A program made the translations under genes and the position numbers. The notes under the pieces are model-generated. The model worked only from the letters and a program-made list of their open reading frames with translations, searched no databases and was not told the origin of the DNA. A DNA stretch of 64,000 nt, taken from contig JAEDKA010000002.1 in assembly GCA_016296065.1 (NCBI GenBank), positions 39,493 to 103,492 of the forward strand, given 5' to 3'. Origin of the DNA: Kiritimatiellia bacterium (GTDB lineage: Bacteria; Verrucomicrobiota; Kiritimatiellia; RFP12; UBA1067). Below, in pieces: positions 11,763 to 52,286 of this stretch; position 1 is the first letter of the stretch; the number at the start of each line of letters is the position of its first letter.

Positions 11763-11775
11763 CTGCCGGGGGGCG

Positions 11776-11990
11776 TTTGACTGGGGGAAGCGGCGTCTCG
11801 CCGCTTCGTCGTGACGCGCCGGGTCGGTGCGTCTCCTTGGATTGCGATGCCAGGTGGCTGAACCAAGGAGATGCGGCGTCTCGCCGCGTCGTCGTGACGC
11901 GCCGGGTCGGTGCGTCTCCTTGGATTGCGATGCCAGGTGGCTGAACCAAGGAGATGCGGCGTCTCGCCGCGTCGGTGTGGCGGAGCTGGA
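11776..11990. repeat. ~83-bp tandem direct repeat (2.5 copies) containing GC hairpins
   Basis: unit ggagatgcggcgtctcgccgcgtcgtcgtgacgcgccgggtcggtgcgtctccttggattgcgatgccaggtggctgaaccaa repeated head-to-tail. Confidence 0.7.
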
Positions 11991-12107
11991 AGCTCCACCT
12001 CCTTGTGAGAGGACGGGCGACGAACGACATAGGACAAACGATGGCGGCGATGGGCGCGCCGCGTTCCCTGCCGCGATCCTCAGTCCTTCGTCGTCCGTCG
12101 TCCGTAC

Positions 12108-12215
12108 TAATCCGTCGCATCGCATCGGATTGCTTTCGCTGCTGGGAGTTTCGGAGTCTTGGAGGATAGAGCCTCGGGAGTGCGCCGTATCGCCCACAGG
12201 GGGTTCCGTCGCTCG
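12108..12215. repeat. REP/MITE-like element (same family as 3940-4110)
   Basis: shares ttgctttcgctgctgggagtttcggagtcttggag and cagggggttccgtcgc with the 3.9-4.1 kb copies. Confidence 0.4.
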
Positions 12216-12303
12216 TCGTCTTTCCGCAATCTGATTACCCGCGAACGTGCGTTAAGGAATATGGTACAATATTCCGGCAATGGTAAAGGAATCAGGTGTC
12301 AGC

Positions 12304-12870
12304 ATGGAAATGTCGCGAGAGGCGAACAAGGAGCGGGAGAAAATGACGCTGCTCCACGTCTGCTGCGGACCGTGCGCGAGCGCGTGCGTTCCGCGGCTGA
12401 AGGACGAGGGGCGGCGGGTGACTATGCTTTTCGCCAACTCCAACATCGACACCGCCGAGGAGTTCGAGCACCGCCGCGCGGAGGCCGAGCGGCTTGCGGC
12501 CCACGACGGCGTCGCGTTTGCGTCTCTTCCCTACGACCACGCCGACTGGCTGGAGAAGGTCGCGCGCGGATACGAGGACGCGCCGGAGAAGGGGGCGAGA
12601 TGCGAAAGGTGCTTCCGCTACAATCTCGGCAAGGCCGCGGAGTGGGCGGCTGCGCACGGGTTCGACTCTTTCACCACCTCGCTCACCGTCTCGCCGCACA
12701 AGCCGAGCGCGATGGTCTTTGCGGCCGGACGCGAGGCGGCGGTCGGCGGACCGTCTTTTCTTGAGTGCGACTTCAAGAAGCGCGAGGGCTTCAAGCTCTC
12801 CGTCTCCAGGGCGAAGGAGCTGGGGCTCTACCGGCAGTCCTACTGCGGATGCGAATTTTCGCGCCGCTGA
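12304..12870 (+). CDS. queH: epoxyqueuosine reductase QueH (DUF208)
   Basis: LLHVCCGPCA…CERC…CGC Cys motifs; promoter aatatggtacaatat. Confidence 0.8.
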   Translation: MEMSREANKEREKMTLLHVCCGPCASACVPRLKDEGRRVTMLFANSNIDTAEEFEHRRAEAERLAAHDGVAFASLPYDHADWLEKVARGYEDAPEKGARCERCFRYNLGKAAEWAAAHGFDSFTTSLTVSPHKPSAMVFAAGREAAVGGPSFLECDFKKREGFKLSVSRAKELGLYRQSYCGCEFSRR

Positions 12871-28082: not shown

Positions 28083-28331
28083 AGCCGCGATTTTTGCTAT
28101 AATATTGTGCAGACGGTACAAGAAGATCTTGCTGTCGTCTCAGACCAGCTTCCGAAAACTACGACATTCTGAAGTTGCCAATAAACGGTTTGCGAGGTGC
28201 AACACATTTGGATGCGCCTTGTCGTGTGTTTATTGGCGGCTGTCGTAGGCCTTCGGAAGATGCACGGCATGGCGTGTCCTTTATATAAACTTAAAGGACG
28301 CGTCCTCTCGGGTGCGTTGGAAAGTCATAAG

Positions 28332-29291
28332 ATGGACAAGATGCAACCAGATGCGTCGAAAATTTCGATAGACGACAACCTTGCTAAGATTAAGTTGTTC
28401 TTGCGTGAGGTCATTCTAGAACCACGCAGGAAAATGCATAAATGGTCTATAATAACAAATCAAACGCCAAATCTTAAGATTGGGTATCCTGGACAACATC
28501 TTGCATCCCTAATTCTTGGAATGAAGGGGACAGGTACTGGTGCTCGAGGAGACGACATCGTTGACGGAACTGAAGTTAAGTCTTGCAGCCGTATCGATCA
28601 ACTTGATAAATGCAAGAAATGCAACGGCAACGTGTTGCGATCACAGAAAAATTGTCCAACATGTGGGTCTTCGGAAATCAAGCGGAACGATGATTCTAAG
28701 TGGTTGATAGCTATTCGAAGTGAAAGTGAACTTGAAATGTATCTTCGTAGAATTCCGAGGATGTTACTTATCATTTCTGATTATCCCGGCTTTGATTACA
28801 ACGACTTCTCATCCATGCGAATTAGAGCATACGAAATCTGGAACCAGTCATCCAGGGCGGCTGGTTTTCGTAATATTCTTACCCACTACTTTAATAACAT
28901 CTTTCTTGAGCATATCAAGAAGAACCCCAAGGCTACTCCTGCCCCTTACAATTTTTGGCCGGACTCTTTCGCATTTTACATGTGTAACCCGATCAAGATC
29001 TTTGAATCAATAATTACCGACATTGACGGCGACGATCCTGGAATTTCAATAACGCACTACATTGAGCCAAACAGGGATCGTAGTTCTCTCGCAAGCGAAT
29101 CAATGCCATCGTCCCTCCTTGTAGAGGAGGAAAAAGAATGCCTTCGTGCTAAGGGTGTTGATTTCTGCGTGGACGGTACAATTGATGAAACAATGAGAGT
29201 CTTTTTGCCGATACGCCTTGGCAAAGCGGTTTCTCACATGCGAAAATACCAGCGCAAGACAGGGCGTTCGACTTCACCCAAGCGGAAGTAG
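28332..29291 (+). CDS. putative Type II restriction endonuclease (PD-(D/E)XK-like)
   Basis: low-GC gene convergent with, and overlapping the 3' end of, the methyltransferase; GDDIVDGTEVKS resembles D…E.K; start moved to MDKMQ at 28332. Confidence 0.5.
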   Translation: MDKMQPDASKISIDDNLAKIKLFLREVILEPRRKMHKWSIITNQTPNLKIGYPGQHLASLILGMKGTGTGARGDDIVDGTEVKSCSRIDQLDKCKKCNGNVLRSQKNCPTCGSSEIKRNDDSKWLIAIRSESELEMYLRRIPRMLLIISDYPGFDYNDFSSMRIRAYEIWNQSSRAAGFRNILTHYFNNIFLEHIKKNPKATPAPYNFWPDSFAFYMCNPIKIFESIITDIDGDDPGISITHYIEPNRDRSSLASESMPSSLLVEEEKECLRAKGVDFCVDGTIDETMRVFLPIRLGKAVSHMRKYQRKTGRSTSPKRK

Positions 29292-30452
29292 ATCAGTTAC
29301 TTCGCTCGAATAGCGCTTTTTAATTGCCTTAATATATTGCTCGTCCATCTCAATTGTGAACGACTCACGATTGAGATGCTCAGCTGAAATCATTGTGGCT
29401 CCACTTCCGCCAAAAGGGTCAAGTACTTTGTCGCCAGGATTAGACGATGCCTTGATAAGGCGTTCAATCAATTTAATAGGTTTCTGGGTTGGGTGATATC
29501 GCTTCTCGCTATAAAAATCAATATCGGTCCACACGTCGCTATACCCCATTAAAGGATTGAAAGTCTGAACGATTTTATCGTAGGGGAAATTGAAATCAAG
29601 AATATCTTGAAGTTTGGCCCAGATTTCTCTGGTTGGGAATTGTTCACAAATATTCTTTCCTGTGTATATTGACCACATTCCTCCGCCATTTGACTTAACA
29701 CCTAGACGTTCATTAATTTCTTTTGATGTCAGCCCAAGTGCCTTTTGTCGCTCTTTTAGCAAATTTCTGGAGAATTCAATGTTGCTCTTTGTCAAGAATA
29801 AGATACTCTCTGTAACGCACGGGAACATCTTGTAGTTCTTGGTTGCTCTGCCCGCAACGGCTTTTATCCCCTTGTCAACTATTATCTGCTGGCGAAGGGA
29901 GAAGCCAATGTCTCGTAATGTTGGCAAGAGCAGGGCAAGCATCCTGAAATATCCAAAGAGATAGAAGGTTCCACCAATGCGCAATTTTTTATATACATCT
30001 GTCATCCACTGCTTCGACCATTCAATATAATCTTCTTCTGTCCTCCATTGGTAATCCCATTTTTCTCCAATCACTTTCCAATATGGAGGATCGGCGATAA
30101 CTAGATCCATTGTGGGAATTTCTTTACACTTCAAGACTTTAAGGCAATCTCCTGCATAAAGAGTGTGGCGACCTAACCTTGAAGTATGAAGTTCAAATGG
30201 CGACGAATCGTTGATAGATGGAGAGGCAATAGAGATTTGCTGATCTTTTTTAAGACGTGTACGCTTGCTATGAATGGTTTGATCGCTTTGTGTATCTTGT
30301 TTGATAGCATTGTCAGCGATAACTAGCTCTGGCAATGTGCTTGCAACACCCAATGCTACATTCTTGCAAAATGACCTTCTGCTGAGACTTTTATTTCCCG
30401 AAGGCCCGATTCGTTTATTGCTTTTAATTGTTTCTAGATTTGAATTAGACAT
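29274..30452 (-). CDS. DNA methyltransferase, beta-class N6-adenine/N4-cytosine (DPPY before FGGSG)
   Basis: IADPPYW (motif IV) followed by DPFGGSGAT (motif I); low GC. Confidence 0.85.
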   Translation of the reverse strand: MSNSNLETIKSNKRIGPSGNKSLSRRSFCKNVALGVASTLPELVIADNAIKQDTQSDQTIHSKRTRLKKDQQISIASPSINDSSPFELHTSRLGRHTLYAGDCLKVLKCKEIPTMDLVIADPPYWKVIGEKWDYQWRTEEDYIEWSKQWMTDVYKKLRIGGTFYLFGYFRMLALLLPTLRDIGFSLRQQIIVDKGIKAVAGRATKNYKMFPCVTESILFLTKSNIEFSRNLLKERQKALGLTSKEINERLGVKSNGGGMWSIYTGKNICEQFPTREIWAKLQDILDFNFPYDKIVQTFNPLMGYSDVWTDIDFYSEKRYHPTQKPIKLIERLIKASSNPGDKVLDPFGGSGATMISAEHLNRESFTIEMDEQYIKAIKKRYSSEVTDLLPLG

Positions 30453-30473
30453 GCTAAGACCTTGTTTGAGCTA

Positions 30474-30674
30474 CTATTTTACGATGTCAACAATGTCTCC
30501 AATATTGCAATTCATTACCGTGCATATACGCTTAAGAACGGACATGCTTACATCGTCTCCGCGCGTCATTTTCGCAATGGTAAATGATGATATGCCGGTC
30601 GCATGTCGGAGATCGGTCTTGTTCATGTCCTTGTCAATTAGCAGCTTCCACAGCTTTTTATATGAAACACTCAT
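30474..30674 (-). CDS. HTH XRE-family controller (C) protein of the R-M system
   Basis: 66 aa; helix-turn-helix LRHATGISSFTIAKMTRGDDVSMSVLKRI; 21 bp upstream of the MTase on the same strand. Confidence 0.6.
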   Translation of the reverse strand: MSVSYKKLWKLLIDKDMNKTDLRHATGISSFTIAKMTRGDDVSMSVLKRICTVMNCNIGDIVDIVK

Positions 30675-32450: not shown

Positions 32451-32476
32451 TCTCCGCGGCGGAAGTGCCGCGCATT

Positions 32477-32532
32477 TTGTCGCTCGGCTGGCGACATGGG
32501 GCGGGGCGGGATTTGGTAGAATAGGCGGCGAA
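32477..32532 (+). promoter_or_regulatory. island promoter-operator cassette A (palindrome TTGTCGCTCGGCTGGCGACA + G-rich spacer + TTTGGTAGAATAGGCGGCGAAA)
   Basis: one of six near-identical cassettes; -10 TAGAAT at 32516; the right half-site overlaps a -35-like TGGCGACA. Confidence 0.6.
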
Positions 32533-32559
32533 ATATCAATGACAGGAAAGGAGAAGAGC

Positions 32560-33915
32560 ATGACGGCATACTTTGAAATTCGAACATCCGACGGCAATCA
32601 ATATGTCTGGCCGGAACCGCTCGGAGACAAGGGCGAGGCGCGGCTTGTAATAGAGAAGGTCGGCCACTCGGTGGAATGCGGGCTGCTGTTTGCGTACACA
32701 GACAACTATCCGTACATTGACCTTGAGTTTAACTCTGGCACTGTCCACTATGTCATAAATCATCGGCATTCGCGTCTCTATTGGGATGGATGCGTATGGG
32801 CGCGCAATTCTATAGAAGATGTCCGCTACTCACTGCCTGACCGCGTGCGGCTTTGTGTCAATGGCCGATATTTTCAGGATGTTGACTATGAGGAATTTGC
32901 GCGGGTTGTTCGGAATACGAAATCCGGTTTCGGAGAGCCGCAATACAGGTGTTCCGTGGTGATAACCGATCCGAGAGTGCGCTTTTTGGCGCTAGCTTCC
33001 CTTGCCTATTTTGACGTCAATGGTGGAAGGGCGAAATGTGAGCTTTACAAGCGAATGAACCCGACTTGCCAGGAGGCATTGGCGGCATTGCGGAGGTTTG
33101 GCCTTGACGTTGGACTCGGTCCCAACAAGGCGGATGAGCGGACCGTGTACGGACATCTTGAAGATTTCAGTGCCGCAAGCATGAAGGAGACCCCGGCTCA
33201 AATTCTTGGTCGAACAATACCTCTTAGAGTTGAATGTGAAGGTCTTTTGGAGCCTGGTAATCTTGGGTCTGGCACTTTGACTTTGAGTCTCTCGAATGAA
33301 CAGACGGGTGTAGTGCTGCGAGGAGTTGAGATGGTTGGGGGAATCCGCAGGAATTATGCATTTAGAGTCCCGACAGAGTGGGCTCGGAAAAGTGTCGTGA
33401 ACATAATAGAGAAGATTTCGGTTTCACCCACGATGCCGGCAGATCGTGAGGGATGCACAAGCCAAAATGTCTTAAGGATATTCAAAGGAGACAGCGCGTT
33501 TTCGCTATCATGGGGTGGGGTTGTCGGTGGTACTTGGCATCCGCTTGTGCGAATGGCCAGGAAGCTCAGGCTCGTCTACGACATGCTGAAAGAGGATGCT
33601 GCAGAGGGTGTTGAAGAGTCCGATATACGCCTCATAGGCGAGTTTAAGATTGCGCATGCTCACGTGAAAGACCAGAATGAGGCGTTTGCGGTGTTCCCTG
33701 CGGGGAAGCGGGTATTTCTGCGTTGCGGTGAGGACGGGGCGAATGTAGTGTTCGTGCAGGGCAGTGAAGATGGAGATGTTCTCGGTGAGGTTCCTACCGT
33801 GTTTGGCGATGTTCACAGCGCACTGCTAAACGGTTGTCACAGTGTCACTGCAAGAATCGAATCGCCATGCAGCCATCAGGGTAAACCTTCGGCTTGCGTT
33901 GTGGTTGTCGAGTGA
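32560..33915 (+). CDS. hypothetical protein (452 aa), cassette-driven
   Basis: RBS aggaaaggagaag; no recognisable domain by eye. Confidence 0.6.
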   Translation: MTAYFEIRTSDGNQYVWPEPLGDKGEARLVIEKVGHSVECGLLFAYTDNYPYIDLEFNSGTVHYVINHRHSRLYWDGCVWARNSIEDVRYSLPDRVRLCVNGRYFQDVDYEEFARVVRNTKSGFGEPQYRCSVVITDPRVRFLALASLAYFDVNGGRAKCELYKRMNPTCQEALAALRRFGLDVGLGPNKADERTVYGHLEDFSAASMKETPAQILGRTIPLRVECEGLLEPGNLGSGTLTLSLSNEQTGVVLRGVEMVGGIRRNYAFRVPTEWARKSVVNIIEKISVSPTMPADREGCTSQNVLRIFKGDSAFSLSWGGVVGGTWHPLVRMARKLRLVYDMLKEDAAEGVEESDIRLIGEFKIAHAHVKDQNEAFAVFPAGKRVFLRCGEDGANVVFVQGSEDGDVLGEVPTVFGDVHSALLNGCHSVTARIESPCSHQGKPSACVVVVE

Positions 33916-34147
33916 TGAAATTCAACAGACCAAGGTACTTTGGCGATAATGGCCGGGGTTTGGTAGAATAGGCGGTGTATGGCGGAGTCCATGCCAGGGA
34001 TGGTTCTCGCAGCGCTGTTCCACGATTGCTGCAAGAGGGGGATGCCTGGCGATAGGGGATAATTGGGGGCCTGGCACGGGGTGTGCTAATAGTCTGGTGT
34101 GTGCGCGGCGGTTCGCGTGCGAAGGAAAACGAAAAGGAGGTTCGGCT

Positions 34148-35479
34148 ATGAGGCAGGTTAATGTTAAGATCGGTGACATCACCGAGGAAACGGTTGATGC
34201 AATTGTGAATGCGGCGAACCGCAGCATGCTTGGCGGCGGCGGGGTGGATGGCGCTATACACAGAGCAGCGGGGCCGCAGCTCAAGTCCGAATGTGAAAAG
34301 TATCCACCAGATGCGCATGGGTATCGTCTAAAGACAGGAGAGGCGAAGATTACGATTGGATGCAATCTTTCTGCGAAGTTCGTGATACATACGGCGGGGC
34401 CGGACTGCAGTGAGGTTCGTGATGCTGCTGAGCAGGATCGGCTGCTGACGGCATCGTGGCGCAACTCCCTTGCCATTGTCGCCGAGCGTGGATTGAAGTC
34501 CGTCGCGTTCCCGTCAATTTCGACCGGAATCTATGGTTTCCCTAAGGAACGGGCGGCAAAGATCGCCGCTGCCGAAGTAGCCAAGTTCCTCGCCGACTAT
34601 CCCGATGTCGAAGTGCGGATATGCCTGCTGGGTCACGATGCCGAGTCGACGAAACGGCTTTACGAGGATGCGTTTGCCCATTCAATGCCCACGTCATTTC
34701 CTACCATTTCCGTTTCCAGACGAGCCCGGTTCCCGGATGAACTTTCATACGATGTCATTGCAGGTGAGTTTAGGCAGACAGCGAACGGTGCAACGTGTCC
34801 GCGTCATGGGTATATCGATGGCGTTCACTACATTGCGAAGTGCGAGACATTCCAGCAGTTGGTGAATCGCCCCAAGACCACTTCGGAAAAACATGTTCAC
34901 AACGAGTTCGTCGCGGACGGGGTGATTCGCGGCATGGGGTTTAATGTCCCGGAGAGTAGAGAGTATAGGACGCGAGAGAATAGAGTGCTCGTTCGCCTTG
35001 CCAAGTTCATCGCGCCAACGAGTCCTCTCTGCAATGCCTGGAATGCTGCAGATAGTGAAGCGAAAGAAGCGATACGTCGACAGGTGGTTGCGGCATATCC
35101 ACTTCTGCATCTGATTGCCGGATTTGATACGTTCCAGAACGACAATGTCATTGTAACAGAGGATGGGAAACTGTGGTTTGTTGACAACGGTGCATCGTTT
35201 GGGTGGAGCGCTATGGGAGCGTACGACAAGTACTACAAATACAGTGGGAGAACAGATCCAGACGATTCCCAATATGGCTTTCTTTCGTTGCGTAATCATC
35301 CAGGGCAAAAGTTGCTTCAGAGAGTTCTGTCGGGTGTAGCGGATGCGGAACTGTGGGCTGGGGCGGCTAAGCTTGACGTCGACAGGTTCGTCTCGCTGCT
35401 TCCTGCAGACGAATATGACGTATCATCCATTCGCACCTATGCAGAGACTCTCGTAAGAGAGGCAAAAAAGCATTGTTGA
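34148..35479 (+). CDS. MacroD-type macro domain fused to a C-terminal PI3K/PI4K-like (atypical kinase-like) domain
   Basis: N-terminus: VDAIVNAAN, GGGGVDGAIHRAAGP, VIHTAGP, AFPSISTGIYGFP (MacroD catalytic motifs). C-terminus: LIAGFDTFQNDNVIVTEDGKLWFVDNGASFG aligns with the PI3K catalytic and activation loops (GDRHxxN…DFG). Confidence 0.75.
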   Translation: MRQVNVKIGDITEETVDAIVNAANRSMLGGGGVDGAIHRAAGPQLKSECEKYPPDAHGYRLKTGEAKITIGCNLSAKFVIHTAGPDCSEVRDAAEQDRLLTASWRNSLAIVAERGLKSVAFPSISTGIYGFPKERAAKIAAAEVAKFLADYPDVEVRICLLGHDAESTKRLYEDAFAHSMPTSFPTISVSRRARFPDELSYDVIAGEFRQTANGATCPRHGYIDGVHYIAKCETFQQLVNRPKTTSEKHVHNEFVADGVIRGMGFNVPESREYRTRENRVLVRLAKFIAPTSPLCNAWNAADSEAKEAIRRQVVAAYPLLHLIAGFDTFQNDNVIVTEDGKLWFVDNGASFGWSAMGAYDKYYKYSGRTDPDDSQYGFLSLRNHPGQKLLQRVLSGVADAELWAGAAKLDVDRFVSLLPADEYDVSSIRTYAETLVREAKKHC

Positions 35480-35658
35480 TTGAATGATGTATGTTGTTCC
35501 ACTGGCGAGATGTGGAAGGGTCGACCACCGGCCGGCCAGGATTGTGGCGCGCTCAGTGATCGCGCAACGGCGTGGCACAATGAGGTGGAGCTTCCAGCTC
35601 CTCCCGTCCGGGCACGTGGCGCGGCGAGACGCCGCACCTCCTTGTCTGTCGCATGAAA

Positions 35659-35714
35659 TGTCGCTCCGCTTGCGACATGGGGTGCGGCGGGATTTGGTAG
35701 AATAGGCGGTGAAA
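35659..35714 (+). promoter_or_regulatory. island promoter-operator cassette C
   Basis: TGTCGCTCCGCTTGCGACA + tggggtgcggcgggat + TTGGTAGAATAGGCGGTGAAAG; 15 nt upstream of the CYTH gene ATG. Confidence 0.6.
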
Positions 35715-35728
35715 GAAAGGAGAGTCAG

Positions 35729-36205
35729 ATGGCGCTTGAGATAGAGAGGAAGTTCCTTGTGAAGGGCGACGGATGGCGCGGGCTGGCGCAGCCGGAGCTG
35801 ATGAAGCAGGGGTATGTGCCGACCGAGAACCACGTGACGGTGCGAGTGCGGACGGCCGGGGTGAAGGCGTGGATAACGTTGAAGACGCCCGCGAAGAATC
35901 TCGTCCGTCAGGAGTTCGAGTACGAGATTCCGATCGCGGACGCGGAGGCCATGCTGAAGTCGATGTGCGGAAATGTCGTGGAGAAGAAGCGATACAGGAT
36001 TCCGGCTGCGGAGCACAGGCTCGCCTGGGAAGTCGACGAGTTCCTCGGCGCAAACGCGCCGCTCGTCACGGCGGAGATTGAGCTGCCAAGCGCGGAGTTT
36101 GCCGTCCAGCTGCCGGAATGGGTTGGCCGCGAGGTCACAGAGGAAAACCGCTTTAAGAACAACCGCCTAGCGGAGCGGCCTTATTCGGCTTGGTCGAATG
36201 TCTGA
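35729..36205 (+). CDS. CYTH-domain protein (CyaB/ThTPase triphosphate-tunnel family)
   Basis: N-terminal EIERKFLV motif diagnostic of CYTH; 158 aa. Confidence 0.75.
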   Translation: MALEIERKFLVKGDGWRGLAQPELMKQGYVPTENHVTVRVRTAGVKAWITLKTPAKNLVRQEFEYEIPIADAEAMLKSMCGNVVEKKRYRIPAAEHRLAWEVDEFLGANAPLVTAEIELPSAEFAVQLPEWVGREVTEENRFKNNRLAERPYSAWSNV

Positions 36206-36291
36206 AATTTCGCTTTGGCGGCGCGGAGATCTGAGTCTCCTGGCAATTGGAGCCTACGAGCAGATTTTCTCCGCGCGCCTTTTTCTTGCAC

Positions 36292-36350
36292 TTGTCGCTC
36301 CGTTGGCGACATGGGGTGGGATGGGTTTTGGTAGAATAGGCGGCGAAAAG
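36292..36350 (+). promoter_or_regulatory. island promoter-operator cassette D (orphan: no ORF downstream)
   Basis: TGTCGCTCCGTTGGCGACA + tggggtgggatgggtt + TTGGTAGAATAGGCGGCGAAAAG. Confidence 0.6.
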
Positions 36351-36445
36351 AGTCGAAAACGAGTAGCCTTTTCGCGGGTGTAATCCGTCACTTCGACTGC
36401 CCCCGAGTGCGAACCGCCATGCGGTCGGGGGCTTTCTATTTGGCG
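36343..36445 (+). ncRNA. candidate ~100-nt small RNA transcribed from cassette D and ended by an intrinsic terminator
   Basis: predicted TSS after TAGAAT; internal hairpin GCGAAAAG…CTTTTCGC; terminator GCCCCCGAGTG…TCGGGGGC + TTTCTATTT at 36398-36445; longest ORF is 20 aa. Confidence 0.35.
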
Positions 36446-36584
36446 GACTATGTGCTCCCTGTGTCTCGCGCGAGATTAGTCTGAATCCAATTCTTCGAGC
36501 GCCGATTCGGCTTCCTCCTGCTCGCGAAGACGCTCCTCGTCCTCTGTGGTCCATTCCGTCTCTGCATTGATAGGAGGCCGGACG

Positions 36585-36752
36585 CTACTTCTCCGGGGTC
36601 ACTCTCATAGCGCGTTGCCACTCGCCGGAGTCGTCCCAGCCGTCCGCCGCCTTGCGGATCCGCTTTGCCCTTGCCTCGATCGAGCGCTTCCGCTCCGCCT
36701 CCGTCCATGTCGGAGGATTCCAGTGATAGGATGTAGTTCCAGAGTTGCTCAT
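36585..36752 (-). CDS. small hypothetical protein (55 aa, Trp-rich)
   Basis: MSNSGTTSYHWNPPTWTEAERKRSIEARAKRIRKAADGWDDSGEWQRAMRVTPEK; RBS gaagggaa; below the ORF-track size cutoff. Confidence 0.3.
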   Translation of the reverse strand: MSNSGTTSYHWNPPTWTEAERKRSIEARAKRIRKAADGWDDSGEWQRAMRVTPEK

Positions 36753-36961
36753 GTTGCGTTCCCTTCGAGGCTGCGAACTCTTCTCGGGTGAAGCGCGGAT
36801 GCCTCAGTTCGCCAGTCTCAAGCCCGCGCATCACCGCCTTCAGCTTTTCCTGGTTCACGTTGGGTAGTGTAGCATTTTTCCCTTGAGCAGTCAACGAGTG
36901 CAGGGCGGTTTTCCGGGCTTCGCGTTCATTTCTTCGGAAACTACGATAGCGGGTCGGGAAA

Positions 36962-37020
36962 TGTCGCTCCGCTGGCGACATGGGGAAGGATGGGGTTTGG
37001 TAGAATAGGCGGCGAAAGGA
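36962..37020 (+). promoter_or_regulatory. island promoter-operator cassette E
   Basis: TGTCGCTCCGCTGGCGACA + tggggaaggatggggt + TTGGTAGAATAGGCGGCGAAAGG. Confidence 0.6.
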
Positions 37021-37033
37021 AAGGACTGAAAAC

Positions 37034-37699
37034 ATGAAACAGGAACTGATCGACAAATTCAATGCCGTGACCGACGAGACGGTCGAGGACTACTGCAAGG
37101 CGAAGGACGGCGGATTCTGCTGGCTGTGGTTCCTTGAGCGGGCGCGGCTGAAGATCATGGAGAGCGGATACCTTCCGCAGCAGGGAACGGCGCTGATCGA
37201 TGCTCGCTACAACAATTCGGCGGATGCGGTCCTGAACGGACTGCTCTGCGCGGCGCGTTCGGTGGAGAGCCCGGCGATCCAGGCGACCAAGGTCCAGCCG
37301 TGGGAAGGCGGGGACCTGGAGCGGTGGAAGCAGGGGCTGCTGGCGTTTTCCGCGATGATGTTCGACGCCGGATGCGTCGCCGCGTACACGCGCGGATACG
37401 AAGACGGGTTCGATCCGGTGGAGGCGAACGCCCCCGCGGCGATTTTCGGCGACGTGGGGTTTACGGGGCTACGCGTCAAGGCGTCGGCATTCCTCCAGGA
37501 GGTCGGCGGGGAGCAGGCGAAGGATCTTGCAGGGGAAATCGGAGACTGCGCGTGCTCGCACCTCTATGCCGACCGGCATATCGTCGAGTGCGCGTTCAAG
37601 GAGGGTGCGGCACTGCGCGAGGCGTATTTTCGCGGGGTCTGCAAGGCGGCATACGTTGTCGGCGCGCTTTTTGCCGAGTTCGTCGCCGCCGGGCGCTGA
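37034..37699 (+). CDS. hypothetical protein (221 aa), cassette-driven
   Basis: ATG 14 nt after the cassette; no recognisable domain. Confidence 0.55.
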   Translation: MKQELIDKFNAVTDETVEDYCKAKDGGFCWLWFLERARLKIMESGYLPQQGTALIDARYNNSADAVLNGLLCAARSVESPAIQATKVQPWEGGDLERWKQGLLAFSAMMFDAGCVAAYTRGYEDGFDPVEANAPAAIFGDVGFTGLRVKASAFLQEVGGEQAKDLAGEIGDCACSHLYADRHIVECAFKEGAALREAYFRGVCKAAYVVGALFAEFVAAGR

Positions 37700-37806
37700 A
37701 CGATGGTAATTCTTTTTGCATTCGCCACGAGCGGAAAGGCTTCCGCCGGGTGCCGCCGATACGGCATGACTGATTGGGGAACGGCCGCCCCCAGGCGAAT
37801 GCATTT

Positions 37807-37865
37807 TGTCGCTCCGCCGGCGACAAGGAGATGGACGGGGTGTGGTAGAATTTGCGGTGGAAAGA
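37807..37865 (+). promoter_or_regulatory. island promoter-operator cassette F
   Basis: TGTCGCTCCGCCGGCGACA + aggagatggacggggtg + TGGTAGAATTTGCGGTGGAAAG. Confidence 0.55.
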
Positions 37866-37877
37866 TGAGGTCTTGGC

Positions 37878-38357
37878 ATGGAAGAGGAAGTGATAACATT
37901 TCTTTCGGACGAGCGCACGGAAATCGGGCGCATCGTTAAGTCGCAGGCTTTGGGCTTTGGCTTCGACTGGCAGTCCAGTGAGGGAGCGGTGCTGAATATT
38001 GACAGTGCTGTCGTTGCGGTCGGAATGGATGAAGCGAGCGCCGAGGCGATATTGAGTAGGACTGTGTCCCCGCAGTTCGGAGAGCAGGAGTCGTGCGCCA
38101 CCTACGCACTCGACGCGTCGCGTCCGATTATAGACGAGGATGGCGGCGAATGTCCTTATGTCGGCGAGTCCCTGGCGGACTGGATACTCTGCGAGCACTG
38201 TCTCTATGGACGCGGCCGGATAACAGTTCTTGGTGACGACGGAATGCTCCCTGCCGAATTGCAATTGATCGAGCATTTGTTCGAGAAGCTTATGGTGTCG
38301 CTCATCAAGAGAGATGGATCGCCTCGCGCCGAGGCGACGCTGACTACAGAATGTTGA
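37878..38357 (+). CDS. hypothetical protein (159 aa), cassette-driven
   Basis: acidic protein; no recognisable domain. Confidence 0.55.
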   Translation: MEEEVITFLSDERTEIGRIVKSQALGFGFDWQSSEGAVLNIDSAVVAVGMDEASAEAILSRTVSPQFGEQESCATYALDASRPIIDEDGGECPYVGESLADWILCEHCLYGRGRITVLGDDGMLPAELQLIEHLFEKLMVSLIKRDGSPRAEATLTTEC

Positions 38358-38362
38358 GGAAA

Positions 38363-38420
38363 TGTCGCTCCGCCGGCGACAAGGGGAGGGGCGGGTTTTG
38401 GTAGAATAGGCGGCGTAAAA
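38363..38420 (+). promoter_or_regulatory. island promoter-operator cassette G
   Basis: TGTCGCTCCGCCGGCGACA + aggggaggggcgggtt + TTGGTAGAATAGGCGGCGTAAAAC. Confidence 0.6.
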
Positions 38421-38440
38421 CAAAACGAAAGGAGATTGGC

Positions 38441-39082
38441 ATGAAGCATGCAACGAAATACGGCGAGGCGGCGCAGATAACCGGCGGCCAGGTCGCCGAA
38501 TCCGGCGACGAAGACGCGCGTCGGGCGTGGGCGGATCAGAAACGCGACTGCGCGGAGGCGGAGTACTTTCTCGGCGAGTGCCATGACTTCGGCGAGCACG
38601 GCCTTTCCAAGGACGATGCGCTCGCGCGCTACTGGTACGAGCGAGCGGCGCGGCATGGCGATGTGTGCGCGATGACGAATCTCGGCTACATGTTCGCGCA
38701 CGGCAACGGAGTCGAGGTGGACGGCGAGAAGTCGGTCGGGTGGTACGAGCTCGCGTCGGCGAACGGCAGCTATCTTGCAATGGGAAATCTTGCCTATTTC
38801 CATCTCACGGGCATATTCGTCGGCAAGGCGGATCCCGTGAAGGCCGTGCGGTTGTACGAGAAGGTCGTCAAGATGGAGCCGGAGTGCGAGTGCTACAAGT
38901 ACGACCTCGGGACCTGCTACGAGAACGGTGTGGGTACGGCGGTCGACATGGAGCGAGCGATTGCGCTCTATCGTGACGCGGCGCGGCTCGGGTCAGGACT
39001 TGCAAAGAAGGCGCTCAAGCGCCTTGGTGTAGACCGGAATGTTGAGTGCGGAACAGGGAAAGCGGAAGGAGTCGCGGTATGA
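38441..39082 (+). CDS. Sel1-repeat protein, cassette-driven
   Basis: Sel1 repeats (YWYERAARHGDVCAMTNLGYMFAHGNGVEVD…). Confidence 0.7.
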   Translation: MKHATKYGEAAQITGGQVAESGDEDARRAWADQKRDCAEAEYFLGECHDFGEHGLSKDDALARYWYERAARHGDVCAMTNLGYMFAHGNGVEVDGEKSVGWYELASANGSYLAMGNLAYFHLTGIFVGKADPVKAVRLYEKVVKMEPECECYKYDLGTCYENGVGTAVDMERAIALYRDAARLGSGLAKKALKRLGVDRNVECGTGKAEGVAV

Positions 39083-39891
39083 ACGAACTTGGAATGAACG
39101 AGGAATGGACGAAGGCGAAGATGCGCGAGGGATATCTCCGCGAGAAGTGCGCCGAAGAGGTGGAGGAGTACATGCACCTCACGACATGCGTCGGGCCGAA
39201 CTTGAAGACGCAGTACATGCTGTGCATCGGACAGCTTGAGTACCGCGTCTTCCAGCTCAAGACGGACGTCGCGCGTTGGCAGCGGCGCTTCACGCTGAGG
39301 CAGCAGGCGCTGAACCGGGGCGAGACGCCGAACCTGGTCCAGATCGAGGCGCAGTTGGACGAGGAGTTCCAGGACTACCTTCGCCAGGTCAAGGAACATC
39401 TTGCGGCGATCAAGGCCGCCGCGCAGCATGCGTCCATGGCAAGATTAAGCGACGAGGAGACGTCGGCGATCCGCGTTAACTACTTGAAGGCCGTCAAGCG
39501 GCTGCATCCGGACATCAACCCCGGTTTGCCCAAGGGCGCGGCGGAGCTGTGGAACAAGATACAGGAGGCCTATGCGAACGGAGACTGGAAGGAGCTTGAG
39601 TTTCTCGTTGCGATGGTCGACGGTGTGCTCGGTGGCGCGGCGACCGTTCCCGAAGACGGCGATGCCCTTGAGGCGTTGAAGAAGTCCATCGCGCGCCTCG
39701 AAAAGAGTCTTGAGGAGCTTAAGGAGCGGAGGAAGAATCTTGAACAACAGGAGCCGTTCGTCTGGAAGGACTTTCTGGGCGACGAGGAAGAGGTGGCCTT
39801 GCGGCAGGCGGTCCTTAACAAGAAGATCGCGGAGCTCGAGGAGGTCGTTTCGGAATACGAATCGCTTTGGAGCGCGAAGGAGGTGGCGTAG
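39079..39891 (+). CDS. J-domain (DnaJ-like HPD) containing protein
   Basis: YLKAVKRLHPDINPGLPKGAAELWNKIQEAYANGDW: a J-domain with an HPD motif in the central region; start overlaps the Sel1 stop (ATGA). Confidence 0.65.
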   Translation: MNELGMNEEWTKAKMREGYLREKCAEEVEEYMHLTTCVGPNLKTQYMLCIGQLEYRVFQLKTDVARWQRRFTLRQQALNRGETPNLVQIEAQLDEEFQDYLRQVKEHLAAIKAAAQHASMARLSDEETSAIRVNYLKAVKRLHPDINPGLPKGAAELWNKIQEAYANGDWKELEFLVAMVDGVLGGAATVPEDGDALEALKKSIARLEKSLEELKERRKNLEQQEPFVWKDFLGDEEEVALRQAVLNKKIAELEEVVSEYESLWSAKEVA

Positions 39892-39892
39892 A

Positions 39893-40285
39893 ATGGCAGG
39901 GGAACTTGTGATCAGCGACAGGAACTGGCTCGACGTCCGAAATTCGGCGTCGTCGGTTCCGATGCCGTTTTCGCACGAGGTATTCCTCAAGGAGTGCCAC
40001 GTCGCGGGGACGATGCACGTTGACGACGTTCTGTACAAGACGAAGTCCGTCGACGTCGGCGCTCCGCTCGTGCTGAAGCGCGAGCCGGAGAACGGTTACG
40101 ACGAGCTGGCGATCCGCGTTGAGACCGCCGCGGGCGAGGGCATCGGGTGGGTGCCTAAAAAGCACAACGACGTCCTTGCGCGGCTGATGGACGCCGGAAA
40201 GCTCCTCGTCGCGAAGGTCGTCCATAAGGAACTCGAGGACCACTGGCTGAACATGAGAATCGAGATATTCCTGAAGGACATATGA
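39893..40285 (+). CDS. HIRAN-domain protein
   Basis: LVLKREPENGYDELAIRVETAAGEGIGWVPKKHNDVLARLMDAG matches the HIRAN consensus (L..EP.NP.D.NAI.V…G..IGY…); 1 nt after the J-domain gene stop. Confidence 0.6.
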   Translation: MAGELVISDRNWLDVRNSASSVPMPFSHEVFLKECHVAGTMHVDDVLYKTKSVDVGAPLVLKREPENGYDELAIRVETAAGEGIGWVPKKHNDVLARLMDAGKLLVAKVVHKELEDHWLNMRIEIFLKDI

Positions 40286-40329
40286 CATGGTAGAATTGTC
40301 GTCAAAAGGAGGAGAAAACGAGGAGGATT

Positions 40330-41551: not shown

Positions 41552-42481
41552 ATGAGAACCAACGAAGCGACAACTGACGACAAGTTCTGGACGGAACTTG
41601 CTCGCGCCGGGGAAGCGGGCGACATGAAGCGGTTCAACGAGCTGTTGGATTCTATCGGCAAGATACAGATCAGCACAGTCAACGATTTTGACTCTGGATT
41701 CTGGACGCCGCTCATGCATGCCGTCGAAGATGGCGATCTGAAGCGTTTTGATGAGCTAATTGCTGATGGTGCGGATGTCAACGTAGGTAATTTTGAAACA
41801 GAGACATACCCCATTACCCTTGCTGCCGAATATGGTCGTGATGAGATGTTCTTCCGCCTGGTTGAGCTTGGCGCCAGCATGGACGTGGACCAGTATTGCT
41901 GCCCATGCTGCGATATGTGGTATGGATTCAATCCTGCAGATCTGTTTGTTCTCGCAATGGAGGCGGGAAGTGTGAAAATTGCTCGCTATCTCAGCTTCAT
42001 GGGAGTGCGTCCGTGGTCGTCTACGCGGTCGCTTCGCAACTGCGGGGATACTGTCCGTGAAGTGGCGAAAGCCTCAGGGAATGGGGATTTTCTCAGGCGC
42101 GTCATTATGACGAAAGAGCTCGCACAGGGGTACATCACGAGATGGCGCGTCGAGGAAACGATAAGGTTCATCAAGCAGTCGTACCGTCTGGAGCACATGA
42201 GGCTGCTGGACTTCCAGCGGCTGAGGAACATGGCGGCGCTTGTCGTGGCTGTGGCGTACTTCGCGGCGGCCTGGCTCGGCAAGAAGGTGAAGCTCGACGC
42301 GCTCGCCAGGCACGTCGCAAAGGTCTCGCGCAAAATGTTCGAGGTGCCGGAGTTCTTCTACTACGCAATCGCGGACGGCCTCCGCTGGCTCTTCGTGCGC
42401 CACGGGAAGTGGCGCGGATGGAAGTGCCCGCGAGAGGAATGCGGCGACTTGCAGATGGAGTTCGAGCTGCTGACGGGATGA
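41552..42481 (+). CDS. chimeric ORF: N-terminal ankyrin-repeat protein fused in frame to a C-terminal IS4-family transposase fragment
   Basis: ANK repeats (GFWTPLMHAVEDGDLKRFDELIADGADVNV); from ~aa 195, YITRWRVEETIRFIKQ is the Y-x2-R-x3-E-x6-K signature of DDE_Tnp_1 (IS4). Confidence 0.55.
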   Translation: MRTNEATTDDKFWTELARAGEAGDMKRFNELLDSIGKIQISTVNDFDSGFWTPLMHAVEDGDLKRFDELIADGADVNVGNFETETYPITLAAEYGRDEMFFRLVELGASMDVDQYCCPCCDMWYGFNPADLFVLAMEAGSVKIARYLSFMGVRPWSSTRSLRNCGDTVREVAKASGNGDFLRRVIMTKELAQGYITRWRVEETIRFIKQSYRLEHMRLLDFQRLRNMAALVVAVAYFAAAWLGKKVKLDALARHVAKVSRKMFEVPEFFYYAIADGLRWLFVRHGKWRGWKCPREECGDLQMEFELLTG

Positions 42482-49157: not shown

Positions 49158-52100
49158 ATGGCTGACGAACTGACCCCAATGCAGCGGCAGTATCTCGCGC
49201 TGAAGCGCGAGATACCCCCGGGCGCGATACTGATGTTCCGCCTCGGCGACTTTTACGAGATGTTCGGGGAGGACGCGGTCGTCGCGTCCCCTATACTCGG
49301 CGCGACGTTGACGCACCGCGGCAGCCAGCCGATGTGCGGCGTCCCGTACCACGCCCTCAACAGCTACCTCGCGAAGCTCATCCGCGCCGGCAAGACTGCC
49401 GCGCTCTGCGACCAGGTGGAGGATCCTAAGACGGCGAAGGGGCTCGTCCGCCGCGAGATCACCCGCATCGTCACGCCCGGCACCGTCACAGAGGACGGAC
49501 TCCTCGACGAGACCGTCAACAACTACGTCGCCGCTGTGCACGGGCTTGGGCTTGCGCTTCTCGACCTCGCGACCGGCGAGTTCACCGTCGAGTCGTTCGC
49601 AACGCAGGCGAAGTTCGACGAGGCGATGGAGCGGTACCGTCCGGCGGAGACGCTTGCCGAGACGGAGGAGAACCGCTGGACCTTCGCGCTCGACGCGGCG
49701 ACGGACGTCCTCACGCGCCACTTCAAGGTGCTTTCGCTGGACGGATTCGGACTCGAGGGGAAGGGCGACCTCATATCGGCGGCGGGTGCGCTTCTGTACT
49801 ACGTCGGCACGACGCTGCGCCATTCCATAGCGCACGTCAGGAAGCTTGCGATACGACAGTCGGACGACGCGCTCGTCCTTGACGCGGGGACTCTGCGCCA
49901 CCTGCAGCTCGTGCCGGGAGGGGACGTTCCCAAGGCGGCGTCGCTCCTCGGAGTCCTCGACGTCACCAGGACCCCCATGGGCGCGCGCACGCTCAGGAAC
50001 TGGACGGTGCGTCCGCTCGCTCGCTCCGCCGACGTCAACGCGCGGCTGGACCGCGTGCAGGCGTTCGTAGACGACCGCGGCACACTTGCCGCGCTCAGGA
50101 GGCTCCTTACGGGTGTGCGCGACCTCGAGAGGCTCGTGCAGAAGGTCGACTCGATGCGGGCGAATCCGCGCGACCTCAGGGCGCTTGCGGATTCGCTGCG
50201 TCCGATACCGGAGATTGTCGACATTCTTCGTGCCGTGACGCGGCGGGACGCCGCATCTCCTTGTGTTGGTGGGGCGCTTGGTGTTGTGACGCGGCAGGAT
50301 GCCGCATCTCCTTGTGTTGGTGGGGCGCTTGGCGCTGTGACGCGGCGGGACGCCGCATCTCCTTGCGGTGGTGAGGCGCTTGCGCCGCAGCCGGACGTCG
50401 TTTCGCTGATTGACCGCGCGATAGTCGAGGAGCCGCCGGCGCTTCTCGCGGACGGAGGCTTCATCGCGCCGGGATACGACCAGGAGCTGGACGAGCTCCG
50501 CGAGATATCGCACGAGGGGCACAAGTGGCTCGCGGAGTTCCAGGCGCGCGAGCAGGCGCGTACGGGCATCACGAAGCTGAAGGTCAAGCACGTGTCGACG
50601 TTCGGATTCGTCATCGAGATTCCCAAGGGATCCGTCTCGCAGGCGCCGGAGGACTACATCCGCCGCCAGACGCTGACGACGGGCGAGCGCTACACGACGC
50701 CAGAGCTGAAGGAGTACGAGTCCAAGGTGCTCGGCGCGCAGGAGAAGTCGATCGCGATAGAGCAGCGGCTCTTCAGGGAGATGCTTGCGACGATCGCGGC
50801 GAAGACGGTGGAGATTCAGGACACCGCGCTCGCGATAGGCGACCTCGATGCCACGCTGGCGCTGGCGGACCGCGCGCTCGCTGCGGGGTACGTGAGGCCG
50901 GTCGTCGACGATTCGGACGTTCTCGAGATCAGGGACGGGAGGCATCCGATAATCGAGCAGCTTCCCGACGCGGAACCGTTCGTCCCGAACTCGGCGTTCC
51001 TGAACACGACGACGGACCAGATAATGCTCATCACCGGGCCGAACATGGCCGGAAAGTCGACGTACATCCGCCAGGTCGCGACGATTGCGGTGATGGCGCA
51101 GATGGGCTCGTTCGTGCCCGCGTCGTCGATGCGGCTCGGAGTGCTGGACCGGGTGTTCACGCGCATCGGCGCGGGAGACGACCTCGCGCGCGGGCGGTCC
51201 ACGTTCCTCGTCGAGATGCAGGAGACCGCGAACATCCTCAACAACGCGACGCCGAAGTCGCTCATCGTCCTCGACGAGATCGGACGCGGCACGTCCACTT
51301 TCGACGGAATCTCAATCGCTTGGTCCGTGGCGGAGTACCTTCACGGCAACGCGCGCTCGAAGGCGAAGACGCTTTTCGCGACGCACTACCACGAGCTCAC
51401 CGACCTGGCGGACACCTTCAAGGGCGTGAAGAACTACACGGTGAAGGTGAAGGAGGAGGGTTCGCGCGTCGTCTTCCTGAGGCGCATTGCTCCCGGAGTC
51501 GCGGAGAAGAGCTTCGGCATCCACGTCGGCGCGATGGCGGGGCTTCCGCAGGAGGTCGTAGCGCGCGCGTCGCAGATACTGAAGAACCTCGAGGCGAACG
51601 AGATCGACGTCAACGCGAAGGAAAAAGCGGTGAGGCGTCCGAGAAAGCGGCTTTCCGACCTTCCGGGGCAGATGACGTTCTTCTCTATCGCCGTTGCGCT
51701 GTCGCTCGTGTTCCAGTGCGGCGCGGCGACGACGATACACAGGAGCTTCCGGAACAGGGACACGGGGTATGTCAACGGCGCGACGCCCGGCTTTTCGGCT
51801 CCGTCGGCCCGCAAGTCGACCGGCGCATCGTCCGTTCCGAAGGCCGTAAGGGGCAAGTCGCCGAACAAGCTGATGGGAAAGCTTGGCGAAGTGGTGGACG
51901 GCGGTCTCATCAGCGTAGTCGACGGATCGGGGAATACCCATGCCGTCTCGCTGAGGCACATCGACGCGCCGGCGGCGGACCAGCCGTTCGGTCCGGAGGC
52001 CGCGAAGTTCCTCGGCGACCTGCTGCGCGGGAAGGAGATCGAGGTGCTATGGACGAAAAAAGACGCCGCAGGCGCGATTTCCGGCGATGTATACTACAGG

Positions 52101-52286
52101 CACGAGAAGTTCGGGATGGTCGACGCCAACATGACGATGGTGAAGAACGGCGCGGCGTGGCAGGCCTACAGGGACACGGAAAAGACATACGCGGCGGCGG
52201 AAAAGGAGGCGCGCGCGGCGAAGCGCGGGCTTTGGTCCGCGCCGAAGCCAGTGAGGCCGTCCGAATGGCGAAAGAGGAAGAAATGA
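49158..52286 (+). CDS. mutS: DNA mismatch repair protein MutS with internal tandem repeats and a C-terminal staphylococcal-nuclease-like (SNase) domain
   Basis: GPNMAGKSTYIRQ Walker A; DEIGRGTSTFDG; C-terminal ~190 aa with SNase motifs (VVDGSGNTHAVSLRHIDAPAADQPFG…AKRGLW) and no intervening stop. Confidence 0.85.
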   Translation: MADELTPMQRQYLALKREIPPGAILMFRLGDFYEMFGEDAVVASPILGATLTHRGSQPMCGVPYHALNSYLAKLIRAGKTAALCDQVEDPKTAKGLVRREITRIVTPGTVTEDGLLDETVNNYVAAVHGLGLALLDLATGEFTVESFATQAKFDEAMERYRPAETLAETEENRWTFALDAATDVLTRHFKVLSLDGFGLEGKGDLISAAGALLYYVGTTLRHSIAHVRKLAIRQSDDALVLDAGTLRHLQLVPGGDVPKAASLLGVLDVTRTPMGARTLRNWTVRPLARSADVNARLDRVQAFVDDRGTLAALRRLLTGVRDLERLVQKVDSMRANPRDLRALADSLRPIPEIVDILRAVTRRDAASPCVGGALGVVTRQDAASPCVGGALGAVTRRDAASPCGGEALAPQPDVVSLIDRAIVEEPPALLADGGFIAPGYDQELDELREISHEGHKWLAEFQAREQARTGITKLKVKHVSTFGFVIEIPKGSVSQAPEDYIRRQTLTTGERYTTPELKEYESKVLGAQEKSIAIEQRLFREMLATIAAKTVEIQDTALAIGDLDATLALADRALAAGYVRPVVDDSDVLEIRDGRHPIIEQLPDAEPFVPNSAFLNTTTDQIMLITGPNMAGKSTYIRQVATIAVMAQMGSFVPASSMRLGVLDRVFTRIGAGDDLARGRSTFLVEMQETANILNNATPKSLIVLDEIGRGTSTFDGISIAWSVAEYLHGNARSKAKTLFATHYHELTDLADTFKGVKNYTVKVKEEGSRVVFLRRIAPGVAEKSFGIHVGAMAGLPQEVVARASQILKNLEANEIDVNAKEKAVRRPRKRLSDLPGQMTFFSIAVALSLVFQCGAATTIHRSFRNRDTGYVNGATPGFSAPSARKSTGASSVPKAVRGKSPNKLMGKLGEVVDGGLISVVDGSGNTHAVSLRHIDAPAADQPFGPEAAKFLGDLLRGKEIEVLWTKKDAAGAISGDVYYRHEKFGMVDANMTMVKNGAAWQAYRDTEKTYAAAEKEARAAKRGLWSAPKPVRPSEWRKRKK
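50236..50388 (+). repeat. 3 x 51-bp in-frame tandem repeat inside mutS (17-aa repeat VTRRDAASPCVGGALGV)
   Basis: three consecutive near-identical 51-mers. Confidence 0.75.

Follow-up and report, generated by a model that had tools for sequence, protein, structure and literature searches.

A gene at 34148-35479 on the + strand of a 64,000-nucleotide stretch of a Kiritimatiellia bacterium genome (assembly GCA_016296065.1, contig JAEDKA010000002.1, positions 39,493 to 103,492; the whole stretch is called the window here) encodes a 443-residue protein, Macro-PKL, which joins a MacroD-type macro domain to a minimal atypical protein-kinase-like (PKL) domain. The family to which the second domain belongs is obligatorily coupled in genomes to ADP-ribose hydrolases: such an enzyme is fused to PKL or adjoins it in all 17 distinct loci (15 genome loci, L016 and the window). 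The reading that we favor, and to which we give roughly even chances, is that Macro-PKL is on its own, as the product of one gene, a module that reverses ADP-ribosylation, encoded in a defence or variable island of the chromosome of this gut bacterium.

The open reading frame, stop codon included, starts with the ATG at 34148, and a GGAGG ribosome-binding site lies 7 nt 5' of it (34136-34140, + strand). An alternative in-frame GTG start is possible at 34097; the homologues P0001 and P0002 begin at the methionine equivalent to the ATG. An identical protein is recorded, without a name, in NCBI and Logan assemblies. In a model of the full-length protein both domains are confident, with a whole-protein pTM of 0.57, and the domain-domain orientation is not. 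The disordered parts of this model are residues 182-192, a flexible linker (34691-34723, + strand; pLDDT about 37), and residues 354-362. As modelled, then, the two domains of Macro-PKL are flexibly joined, and the activation segment is mobile.

Pfam, relatives in the Protein Data Bank (PDB) and sequence motifs all identify residues 1-180 (34148-34687, + strand; model pLDDT above 90) as a MacroD-type macro domain. Pfam PF01661 (Macro) matches residues 20-140 with an E value of 9.9e-40 and 135.6 bits against a cutoff of 22. The nearest NCBIfam models are the O-acetyl-ADP-ribose deacetylase and protein-ADP-ribose hydrolase equivalogs, with scores under their strict cut-offs, and the closest solved structures are of the MacroD type, namely 5fud (E 8.7e-39, aligned over residues 5-161), YmdB and MACROD1/2. 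Every expected motif was found: GDIT at residues 9-12, which includes the adenine-binding aspartate D10; N24-x6-GGVD, with GGGGVD running from residue 29; and GIYG at residues 127-130. The catalytic pattern N-x6-GG[VLI]D is matched by N24...GGVD34, and G[VIA][YF]G by G127-I-Y-G130. These results confirm the original prediction, made from the DNA sequence alone, that the N-terminal 180 residues carry all MacroD catalytic signatures, and we predict from the motifs that the domain is an apparently active ADP-ribose hydrolase.

The remainder of the protein, residues 181-443, has no Pfam or NCBIfam match, even at E values up to 10. With 17 homologues as input, AlphaFold2 nevertheless gave a confident model of residues 183-443 (pLDDT 88.7, pTM 0.87), whose elements follow the order of a kinase. 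Two strands are followed by a strand ending in K231, a helix that carries E253 within the sequence HVHNE, two more strands, a hinge and two helices; after these come a loop with D327 and D332-N333, two short strands and D346-N347-G348. The predicted fold is bilobal, as in kinases, with a helical C-lobe at residues 380-442, and this C-terminal helical part is family-specific. Foldseek, run on the model, also returned the kinase fold. Together with profile searches, these results place the PKL domain at about residues 195-443 (34730-35476, + strand).

The residues expected of a kinase are present. K231 (codon 34838-34840, + strand), at the end of the strand formed by residues 226-232, is the nearly invariant strand-3 lysine and by analogy would contact the phosphates of ATP. 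E253 (codon 34904-34906, + strand) lies on the helix-C equivalent (residues 247-262) and is invariant in alignment A1 and nearly invariant in A2. Conservation and the alignment with PI3K locate the putative catalytic loop (D327, D332-N333) and the metal-binding D346-N347-G348 within residues 322-352, LIAGFDTFQNDNVIVTEDGKLWFVDNGASFG (35111-35203, + strand), which is the stretch that the original prediction had quoted as a kinase-type motif. Across 59 diverse relatives all of these residues are invariant or nearly so, and they fall in the expected secondary-structure elements of the predicted model. Such conservation of a lysine, a glutamate, an aspartate, an Asp-Asn pair and an Asp-Asn-Gly speaks for catalytic activity and against a pseudokinase. 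Judged by the model, PKL is apparently a minimal atypical kinase fold with all of the residues required for ATP/Mg binding and phosphotransfer.

The original prediction had gone further and described the region as a PI3K/PI4K-like atypical kinase. A kinase-only profile, A3, matched only class I PI3Ks among PDB entries, and weakly (E 0.14 over 44 residues), yet the alignment lands exactly on the catalytic loop and DFG, with N333 equivalent to N920 and D346 to D933 of p110-alpha. Set against GDRHxxN...DFG, PKL reads FDTFQNDN...DNG, so that the Arg-His is absent and the first aspartate is offset by one residue. The Pfam model PI3_PI4_kinase does not match the window protein even at E values up to 10. 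Structural comparison of the PKL model gave scores of 12.6 for CtkA, 12.0 and 11.4 for PI4K type II-alpha, 11.6 for CotH, 11.0-11.3 for the HipA family, 11.0 for both Rio1 and actin-fragmin kinase, about 10.4-10.6 for ATM, SMG1, MavQ, PI4KA and PI3K-alpha, and about 9 for ordinary protein kinases. PKL is about equally near to CtkA, HipA, CotH and Rio. Identity to CtkA (of Helicobacter pylori), PI4K type II-alpha, CotH, HipA, Rio and actin-fragmin kinase is 8-18%, with no match to a family model: HipA_C and HipA_2 do not match the window protein, although HipA_C, HipA_2 and APH weakly recognize the same domain in the distant relative P0177 (Pfam), and the HipA models also match one member of A2 weakly. 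Our results thus support the claim of a PI3K/PI4K-like fold, and they do not support membership of the PI3K/PI4K family.

If the kinase-like motifs were fortuitous and the C-terminal region had some other fold, the lack of any Pfam or NCBIfam match and the non-significant sequence-only match to PI3K would be expected. This explanation is ruled out, leaving it a negligible probability, by the kinase order of the AlphaFold2 model, which the original prediction had proposed as the check, and by the conservation of the quoted motif among the 59 relatives, which shows that it is not a chance match.

Close relatives of PKL are rare, all are unnamed, and none has a Pfam domain over the PKL region. 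Among 5.8 billion proteins, a single-sequence search found 11 clusters and a profile search 109. The genomes that carry them are only metagenome-assembled genomes of Kiritimatiellia, Lentisphaerae and "Verrucomicrobia" from animal guts. By Pfam labels, a census of about 120 clusters comprises PKL alone (45 complete and about 20 partial clusters), PKL-vWA (23 clusters), HD_4-PKL (about 15), Macro fusions (about 10) and fusions to PARG, calcineurin-like or ARH domains (a few clusters each). Besides HD_4, the family is also found fused to Metallophos, InPase and NUDIX domains. Macro occurs on either side of PKL, which implies at least two independent fusions. In P0003, P0004, P0005, P0127 and P0011, a domain of about 130 residues (LDLAFIMQRVNRQL...) with no Pfam match lies between Macro and PKL.

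More distant relatives are numerous. An exhaustive search of 1.84 billion representatives with a hidden Markov model (HMM) found 511 proteins at E < 1e-10; the profile, A1, contained macro columns, and some proteins with Macro only may be counted in the totals of 2638 and 511. Re-checking with a kinase-only HMM found the kinase core in 150 of the 150 matches listed. Many of the distant relatives are proteins of 800-5000 residues with Phage_Mu_F or Phage_min_cap2 head domains, ADP-ribosyltransferase (ART), NUDIX or InPase domains or tandem kinases. Consistent with this, comparison with predicted viral structures gave as its best matches large proteins of the MuF, portal or ART type from actinophages and uncultured phages. 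No model for the PKL domain exists in Pfam, NCBIfam, PHROG or PADLOC, and PADLOC and PHROGs gave no known defence or phage family for it.

The hydrolases coupled to PKL represent three unrelated folds: ADP-ribosylglycohydrolase (ARH), Macro and PARG. An ARH gene lies directly downstream of PKL in L001-L006, L008, L009, L011, L014 and L015, and L011 also has the arrangement PARG-HD-PKL. L010 encodes a PKL-ARH fusion with PARG upstream, and L013 a PARG-PKL fusion. Macro is represented by a gene near PKL in L007, by a PKL-Macro fusion in L012 and by the Macro-PKL fusion in L016 and the window. Two flanking genes are conserved at PKL in the 15 genome loci: a regulator upstream, found in 12 of them, and the ARH downstream. 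The regulator, which combines a Nudix domain with an NrtR winged helix, is of the ADP-ribose-sensing type and has a nearly intact Nudix box. The usual operon order is Nudix transcription factor, PKL, ARH. Further contigs contain the same operon, in which PKL comes with or without vWA or HD and Metallophos is sometimes present between PKL and ARH; the Nudix regulator is found in L025-L029. In variant loci PARG, Macro, HD_4 or a calcineurin-like phosphoesterase is added or substituted, as a fusion or as a neighbour.

The surroundings of these operons include genes associated with defence: L016 has SNF2, methylase and helicase genes, L022 and L027 have PLD-SNF2 and MmeI/Eco57I-type methylases, and BrxA/BREX, PDDEXK, DISARM-like and Schlafen-like genes lie near other PKL loci. 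Other genes recur as well. A DUF4432 (mutarotase-like) gene follows ARH in three loci, and DUF4432 and DUF6717 were seen repeatedly near PKL/ARH (L003 12072-13061, L005 3287-3751, L012 13901-14359; L027 3362-3727, L023 6883-7308). An S-adenosylmethionine-synthetase-like gene lies immediately upstream of the Nudix regulator in L027 (1335-2414), and another, for a protein of 874 residues, about 2 kb downstream of ARH in L002 (6492-9116).

In the pathway that we propose, a foreign ADP-ribosyltransferase, such as a phage Alt/Mod-like enzyme or an interbacterial toxin, would modify a host macromolecule, the macro domain would remove that ADP-ribose, and the PKL kinase would perform an ATP-dependent step of the same pathway. 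The kinase may phosphorylate a hydroxyl of ADP-ribose, either free after release or still attached, and this would commit it to breakdown or salvage by the accompanying phosphoesterases (HD, calcineurin-like, Nudix). It may also set the level of an ADP-ribose signal that is read by the Nudix-type regulator in the operon versions. As to the phosphoryl acceptor, our guess is ADP-ribose, with a protein as the other possibility. ARH, Macro and PARG cut different bonds, and their only common product is ADP-ribose. We favor it as acceptor because it is the sole thing common to the three hydrolase folds and because phosphoesterases able to process a phosphorylated nucleotide product accompany the family. 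Mutarotases and kinases are paired in sugar pathways, and the mutarotase-like gene that follows ARH in three loci fits the same idea, as an analogy and not as evidence. Tentatively, PKL could be the first kinase dedicated to ADP-ribose, whether free or linked to macromolecules, and one used both by gut bacteria of the Planctomycetes-Verrucomicrobia-Chlamydiae (PVC) group and in phage polyvalent proteins; we think this possible but less likely than not.

Several observations weigh against this proposal. A literature search found no ADP-ribose kinase of the PKL fold. MacroD-type domains can also remove the 1''-phosphate of ADP-ribose-1''-phosphate, so fusing one to a 1''-kinase would set up a futile cycle. 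Within the close family vWA is the most frequent fusion partner, and one member carries an AAA ATPase; both kinds of fusion indicate a protein target, and the best structural matches include the protein kinases CtkA, HipA and CotH. No Nudix-HTH (helix-turn-helix) or WYL regulator adjoins the window gene, and no ARH was present among the island neighbours scanned, so the logic of the operons is transferred to it by inference. Finally, the Macro-bearing relative P0010 is located in a phage- or plasmid-like replication region, which suggests that the protein could serve an invader and not the host.

The vWA and AAA fusions, the likeness to CtkA and HipA and the 1''-phosphatase conflict make a protein-kinase effector a serious rival. 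Here Macro-PKL would be a sensor-effector, a HipA/CtkA-like Ser/Thr kinase that acts on a host or phage protein and is targeted or gated by the macro domain; the outcome might be growth arrest or the disabling of an invading transferase, and ARH or PARG would play the part of the macro domain in the relatives. We regard this as possible but doubtful. The macro domain keeps its full catalytic signature, unlike a pure binding module, and a single protein target is hard to reconcile with one kinase that accompanies three hydrolase folds of different bond specificities. Additionally, no conserved antitoxin-like partner adjoins the window gene. The location of P0010 beside phage replication genes fits another explanation, in which a mobile-element or phage cassette erases host immunity based on ADP-ribose (DNA ADP-ribosylation by DarT-like enzymes, or ADP-ribose-derived signals) and the kinase inactivates a nucleotide signal or a host factor. 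Such a counter-defence would fit the distant relatives, which are found in polyvalent proteins of phages (MuF, minor-capsid and portal) along with ADP-ribosyltransferase and NUDIX domains, and it would fit the behavior of the gene as a movable cassette with domain-level mosaicism (see below). However, the window is chromosomal, with MutS, EF-G and aminotransferase genes downstream of Macro-PKL, and the surroundings of the gene showed no phage structural genes. The close family is under a host-type Nudix repressor in chromosomal operons, and a tblastn search against 50,697 phage genome records returned no match. We consider counter-defence unlikely.

It is less likely still that Macro-PKL serves ordinary metabolism of NAD, ADP-ribose or O-acetyl-ADP-ribose with no role in conflict. 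NrtR-type regulators do normally control NAD metabolism (cited in PMC9503650), and MacroD enzymes deacetylate O-acetyl-ADP-ribose, as the names of the matched models and structures indicate. But the family is rare and patchily distributed (of 5.8 billion proteins it accounts for about 110 clusters, in gut Kiritimatiellia/Lentisphaerae only), restriction, DISARM-like and BREX genes adjoin it, and the PKL operons contain no NAD biosynthesis genes. Cassette content also differs between strains whose Macro-PKL proteins are 97% identical.

The window gene lies in a variable island that spans about 28 to 43.5 kb of the window. At its left edge (28197-30674) is a type II restriction-modification system, made up of a gene for a MamI-type restriction endonuclease, a convergent N4/N6 methylase gene and a small HTH gene. 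The small genes of the island encode a zinc-finger lipoprotein-like protein, an unknown protein of 458 residues, Macro-PKL, CYTH, two unknowns, Sel1, a J-domain-like protein, HIRAN and one more unknown. They are followed by a single ORF with ankyrin repeats and a DDE transposase domain fragment (41552-42481), which may mark the island edge. The CYTH (triphosphate tunnel; 35729-36205) and HIRAN (DNA 3'-end binding; 39710-40285) genes of this array are stand-alone, and HIRAN is among the partners of the components of ARG systems (PMC9503650). The 458-residue upstream protein and other island proteins gave no Pfam, PADLOC, PHROG or PDB sequence match. No ART or sirtuin was found among the scanned neighbours, where five island proteins without any family match could conceal one. 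Beyond the island, the MutS encoded at 49158-52286 has a C-terminal staphylococcal-nuclease (SNase) domain (residues 930-1027).

In L016, which encodes the 97% identical protein, the genes upstream of it, SNF2, methylase and helicase, differ from those in the window. In a blastn alignment, homology extends over window positions 34047-35454 at 98.6% identity and resumes at 35659. It begins 100 nt 5' of the gene, in the proximal leader (34047-34147, + strand), which, to judge from this alignment, appears to travel with the gene. In L016 the interval equivalent to window 35480-35658 contains two extra genes before CYTH (11368-12456), for an unknown protein of 133 residues and an HD/SpoT-like hydrolase of 206 residues; the window has neither, so cassette content turns over between near-identical strains. 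The limits of this homology and the differing upstream genes rule out a conserved partner gene beside the window gene. Within the gene, P0002 is 61% identical to the window protein in the macro half and 93.5% in the kinase half. From this mosaicism and the limits of the homology with L016, we infer that the gene is a movable mosaic cassette without a fixed partner.

A repeat of about 64 nt lies 5' of each of eight consecutive small, unrelated + strand genes (32474-40325). It consists of a perfect palindrome, TGTCGC-N7-GCGACA, a G-rich spacer, an extended -10 element, TTGGTAGAAT, and AGGCGG. Copies occur at 32474, 35655, 36289, 36958, 37803 and 38359, with degenerate copies at 33949 and 40288 and an extra palindrome at 23719, and the same repeat lies 5' of the homologous gene in L016 and L030. 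The arrangement resembles an array of cassettes under a common promoter/operator, or the repeat is possibly a recombination site. It is similar to the orphan immunity gene arrays of gut Bacteroidales. The array also recalls the cassette loci near polyvalent kinases (Iyer et al. 2017, PMC5512222). After the copy at 36289, about 600 nt without a long ORF extend to the next copy; this segment (36289-36957) may be a decayed cassette or may have a small or non-coding product.

A promoter-like site 5' of Macro-PKL, TTGGCG-18-TAGAAT with an upstream TG (extended -10), at 33940-33969 (+ strand), is a degenerate copy of this repeat. TTGGTAnAAT also occurs 5' of housekeeping genes (49115, 54559, 59111 and 60366) and is thus the general -10 of the organism. 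Macro-PKL is separated from the preceding gene by 232 nt, and the -10 at 33964-33969 would give a leader of about 175 nt. An upstream ORF (uORF) of 27 codons, MAESMPGMVLAALFHDCCKRGMPGDRG, occupies 33979-34062 (+ strand) and has no Shine-Dalgarno sequence. The original prediction had described a leader of ~190 nt with a 26-codon uORF; both are present, at these slightly different lengths, and they are not conserved. In L016 neither the distal leader nor the uORF peptide is related to that of the window, and L030 has only the usual short leader of about 30 nt and no uORF. The predicted folding of the leader does not surpass that of shuffled sequence (z +0.99), and Rfam gave no match. These results together rule out a riboswitch or attenuator. 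The uORF is probably non-functional, and our view is that the long leader is a scar left when the cassette was inserted.

ADP-ribosylation is a central weapon for both sides in conflicts between phages and bacteria and among bacteria, and its reversal is thought to require hydrolases only. The association of an apparently competent, conserved kinase with all three hydrolase folds implies that a step which consumes ATP has gone unrecognised, and the 443-residue Macro-PKL is a compact place to seek it. The analysis also adds a large unnamed domain family (>500 representatives at E < 1e-10) that includes phage head-packaged effectors, and Macro-PKL could be used to test the host systems that are predicted to counteract ADP-ribosylation by viruses. 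If PKL does phosphorylate ADP-ribose, reversing ADP-ribosylation or salvaging its product would include a new step that depends on ATP, used by gut PVC bacteria against phage or toxin transferases and by phages in injected polyvalent proteins.

The N-terminal 180 residues match the MacroD-type enzymes (Escherichia coli YmdB, human MACROD1/2 and Oceanobacillus MacroD) fully. Those enzymes are stand-alone or have other partners, and none is described with a kinase-like domain, whereas here one is fused to PKL. Neither a Macro-kinase fusion nor a kinase in operons of ADP-ribose hydrolases was described in the four profile libraries and the literature that we searched, and to that extent the suggestion that the architecture is undescribed stands. 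A precedent for ATP-dependent phosphorylation of ADP-ribose in phage-host conflict is reportedly provided by NARP1, a phage pathway of NAD reconstitution that pairs an ADP-ribose pyrophosphokinase with a nicotinamide ADP-ribose transferase. Its enzyme is said to have a PRPP-synthetase fold, to transfer pyrophosphate and to work with a Nampt-like partner, and no such partner was seen in the PKL loci.

Some distant PKL relatives sit in MuF polyvalent proteins. A kinase of polyvalent proteins from phages and conjugative elements is reported mainly from (pro)phages of Verrucomicrobia-Chlamydia and Bacteroidetes, and it also has stand-alone copies and small cassette gene arrays nearby (Iyer et al. 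2017, PMC5512222). That kinase has an insert in its catalytic loop and is reported to have lost its whole C-terminal subdomain, whereas PKL keeps a helical C-lobe, and the coupling to Macro or ARH found here is not mentioned for it (PMC5512222). Its Pfam model, which we assume Pfam to hold, gave 0 matches on the >90 PKL proteins scanned.

The operons of the PKL relatives match the ARG-centric systems, a predicted host counter to viral ADP-ribosylation (Iyer, Burroughs, Anantharaman and Aravind 2022, PMC9503650, section 3.8). These combine an ARG core with a repressor (Nudix or WYL), phosphatases (HD, calcineurin or rhodanese), chaperones such as vWA, and nucleases, with an occasional Macro or NADAR and no transferase, in actinobacteria, planctomycetes and proteobacteria; no kinase is mentioned (PMC9503650). 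The PKL relatives' operons are alike in their Nudix-wHTH regulator, ARH, HD or calcineurin-like phosphatases, vWA, occasional Macro, lack of a transferase and presence in defence islands. The window gene shares with them an ADP-ribose remover without a coupled transferase or sirtuin among the neighbours scanned, and differs in being a compact Macro fusion without ARH or regulator. ARG-centric systems are themselves a computational prediction, to which the PKL loci add a kinase. We conclude that the components and the type of system were already known or predicted, and that what is new is the kinase module and its universal coupling to ADP-ribose erasers.

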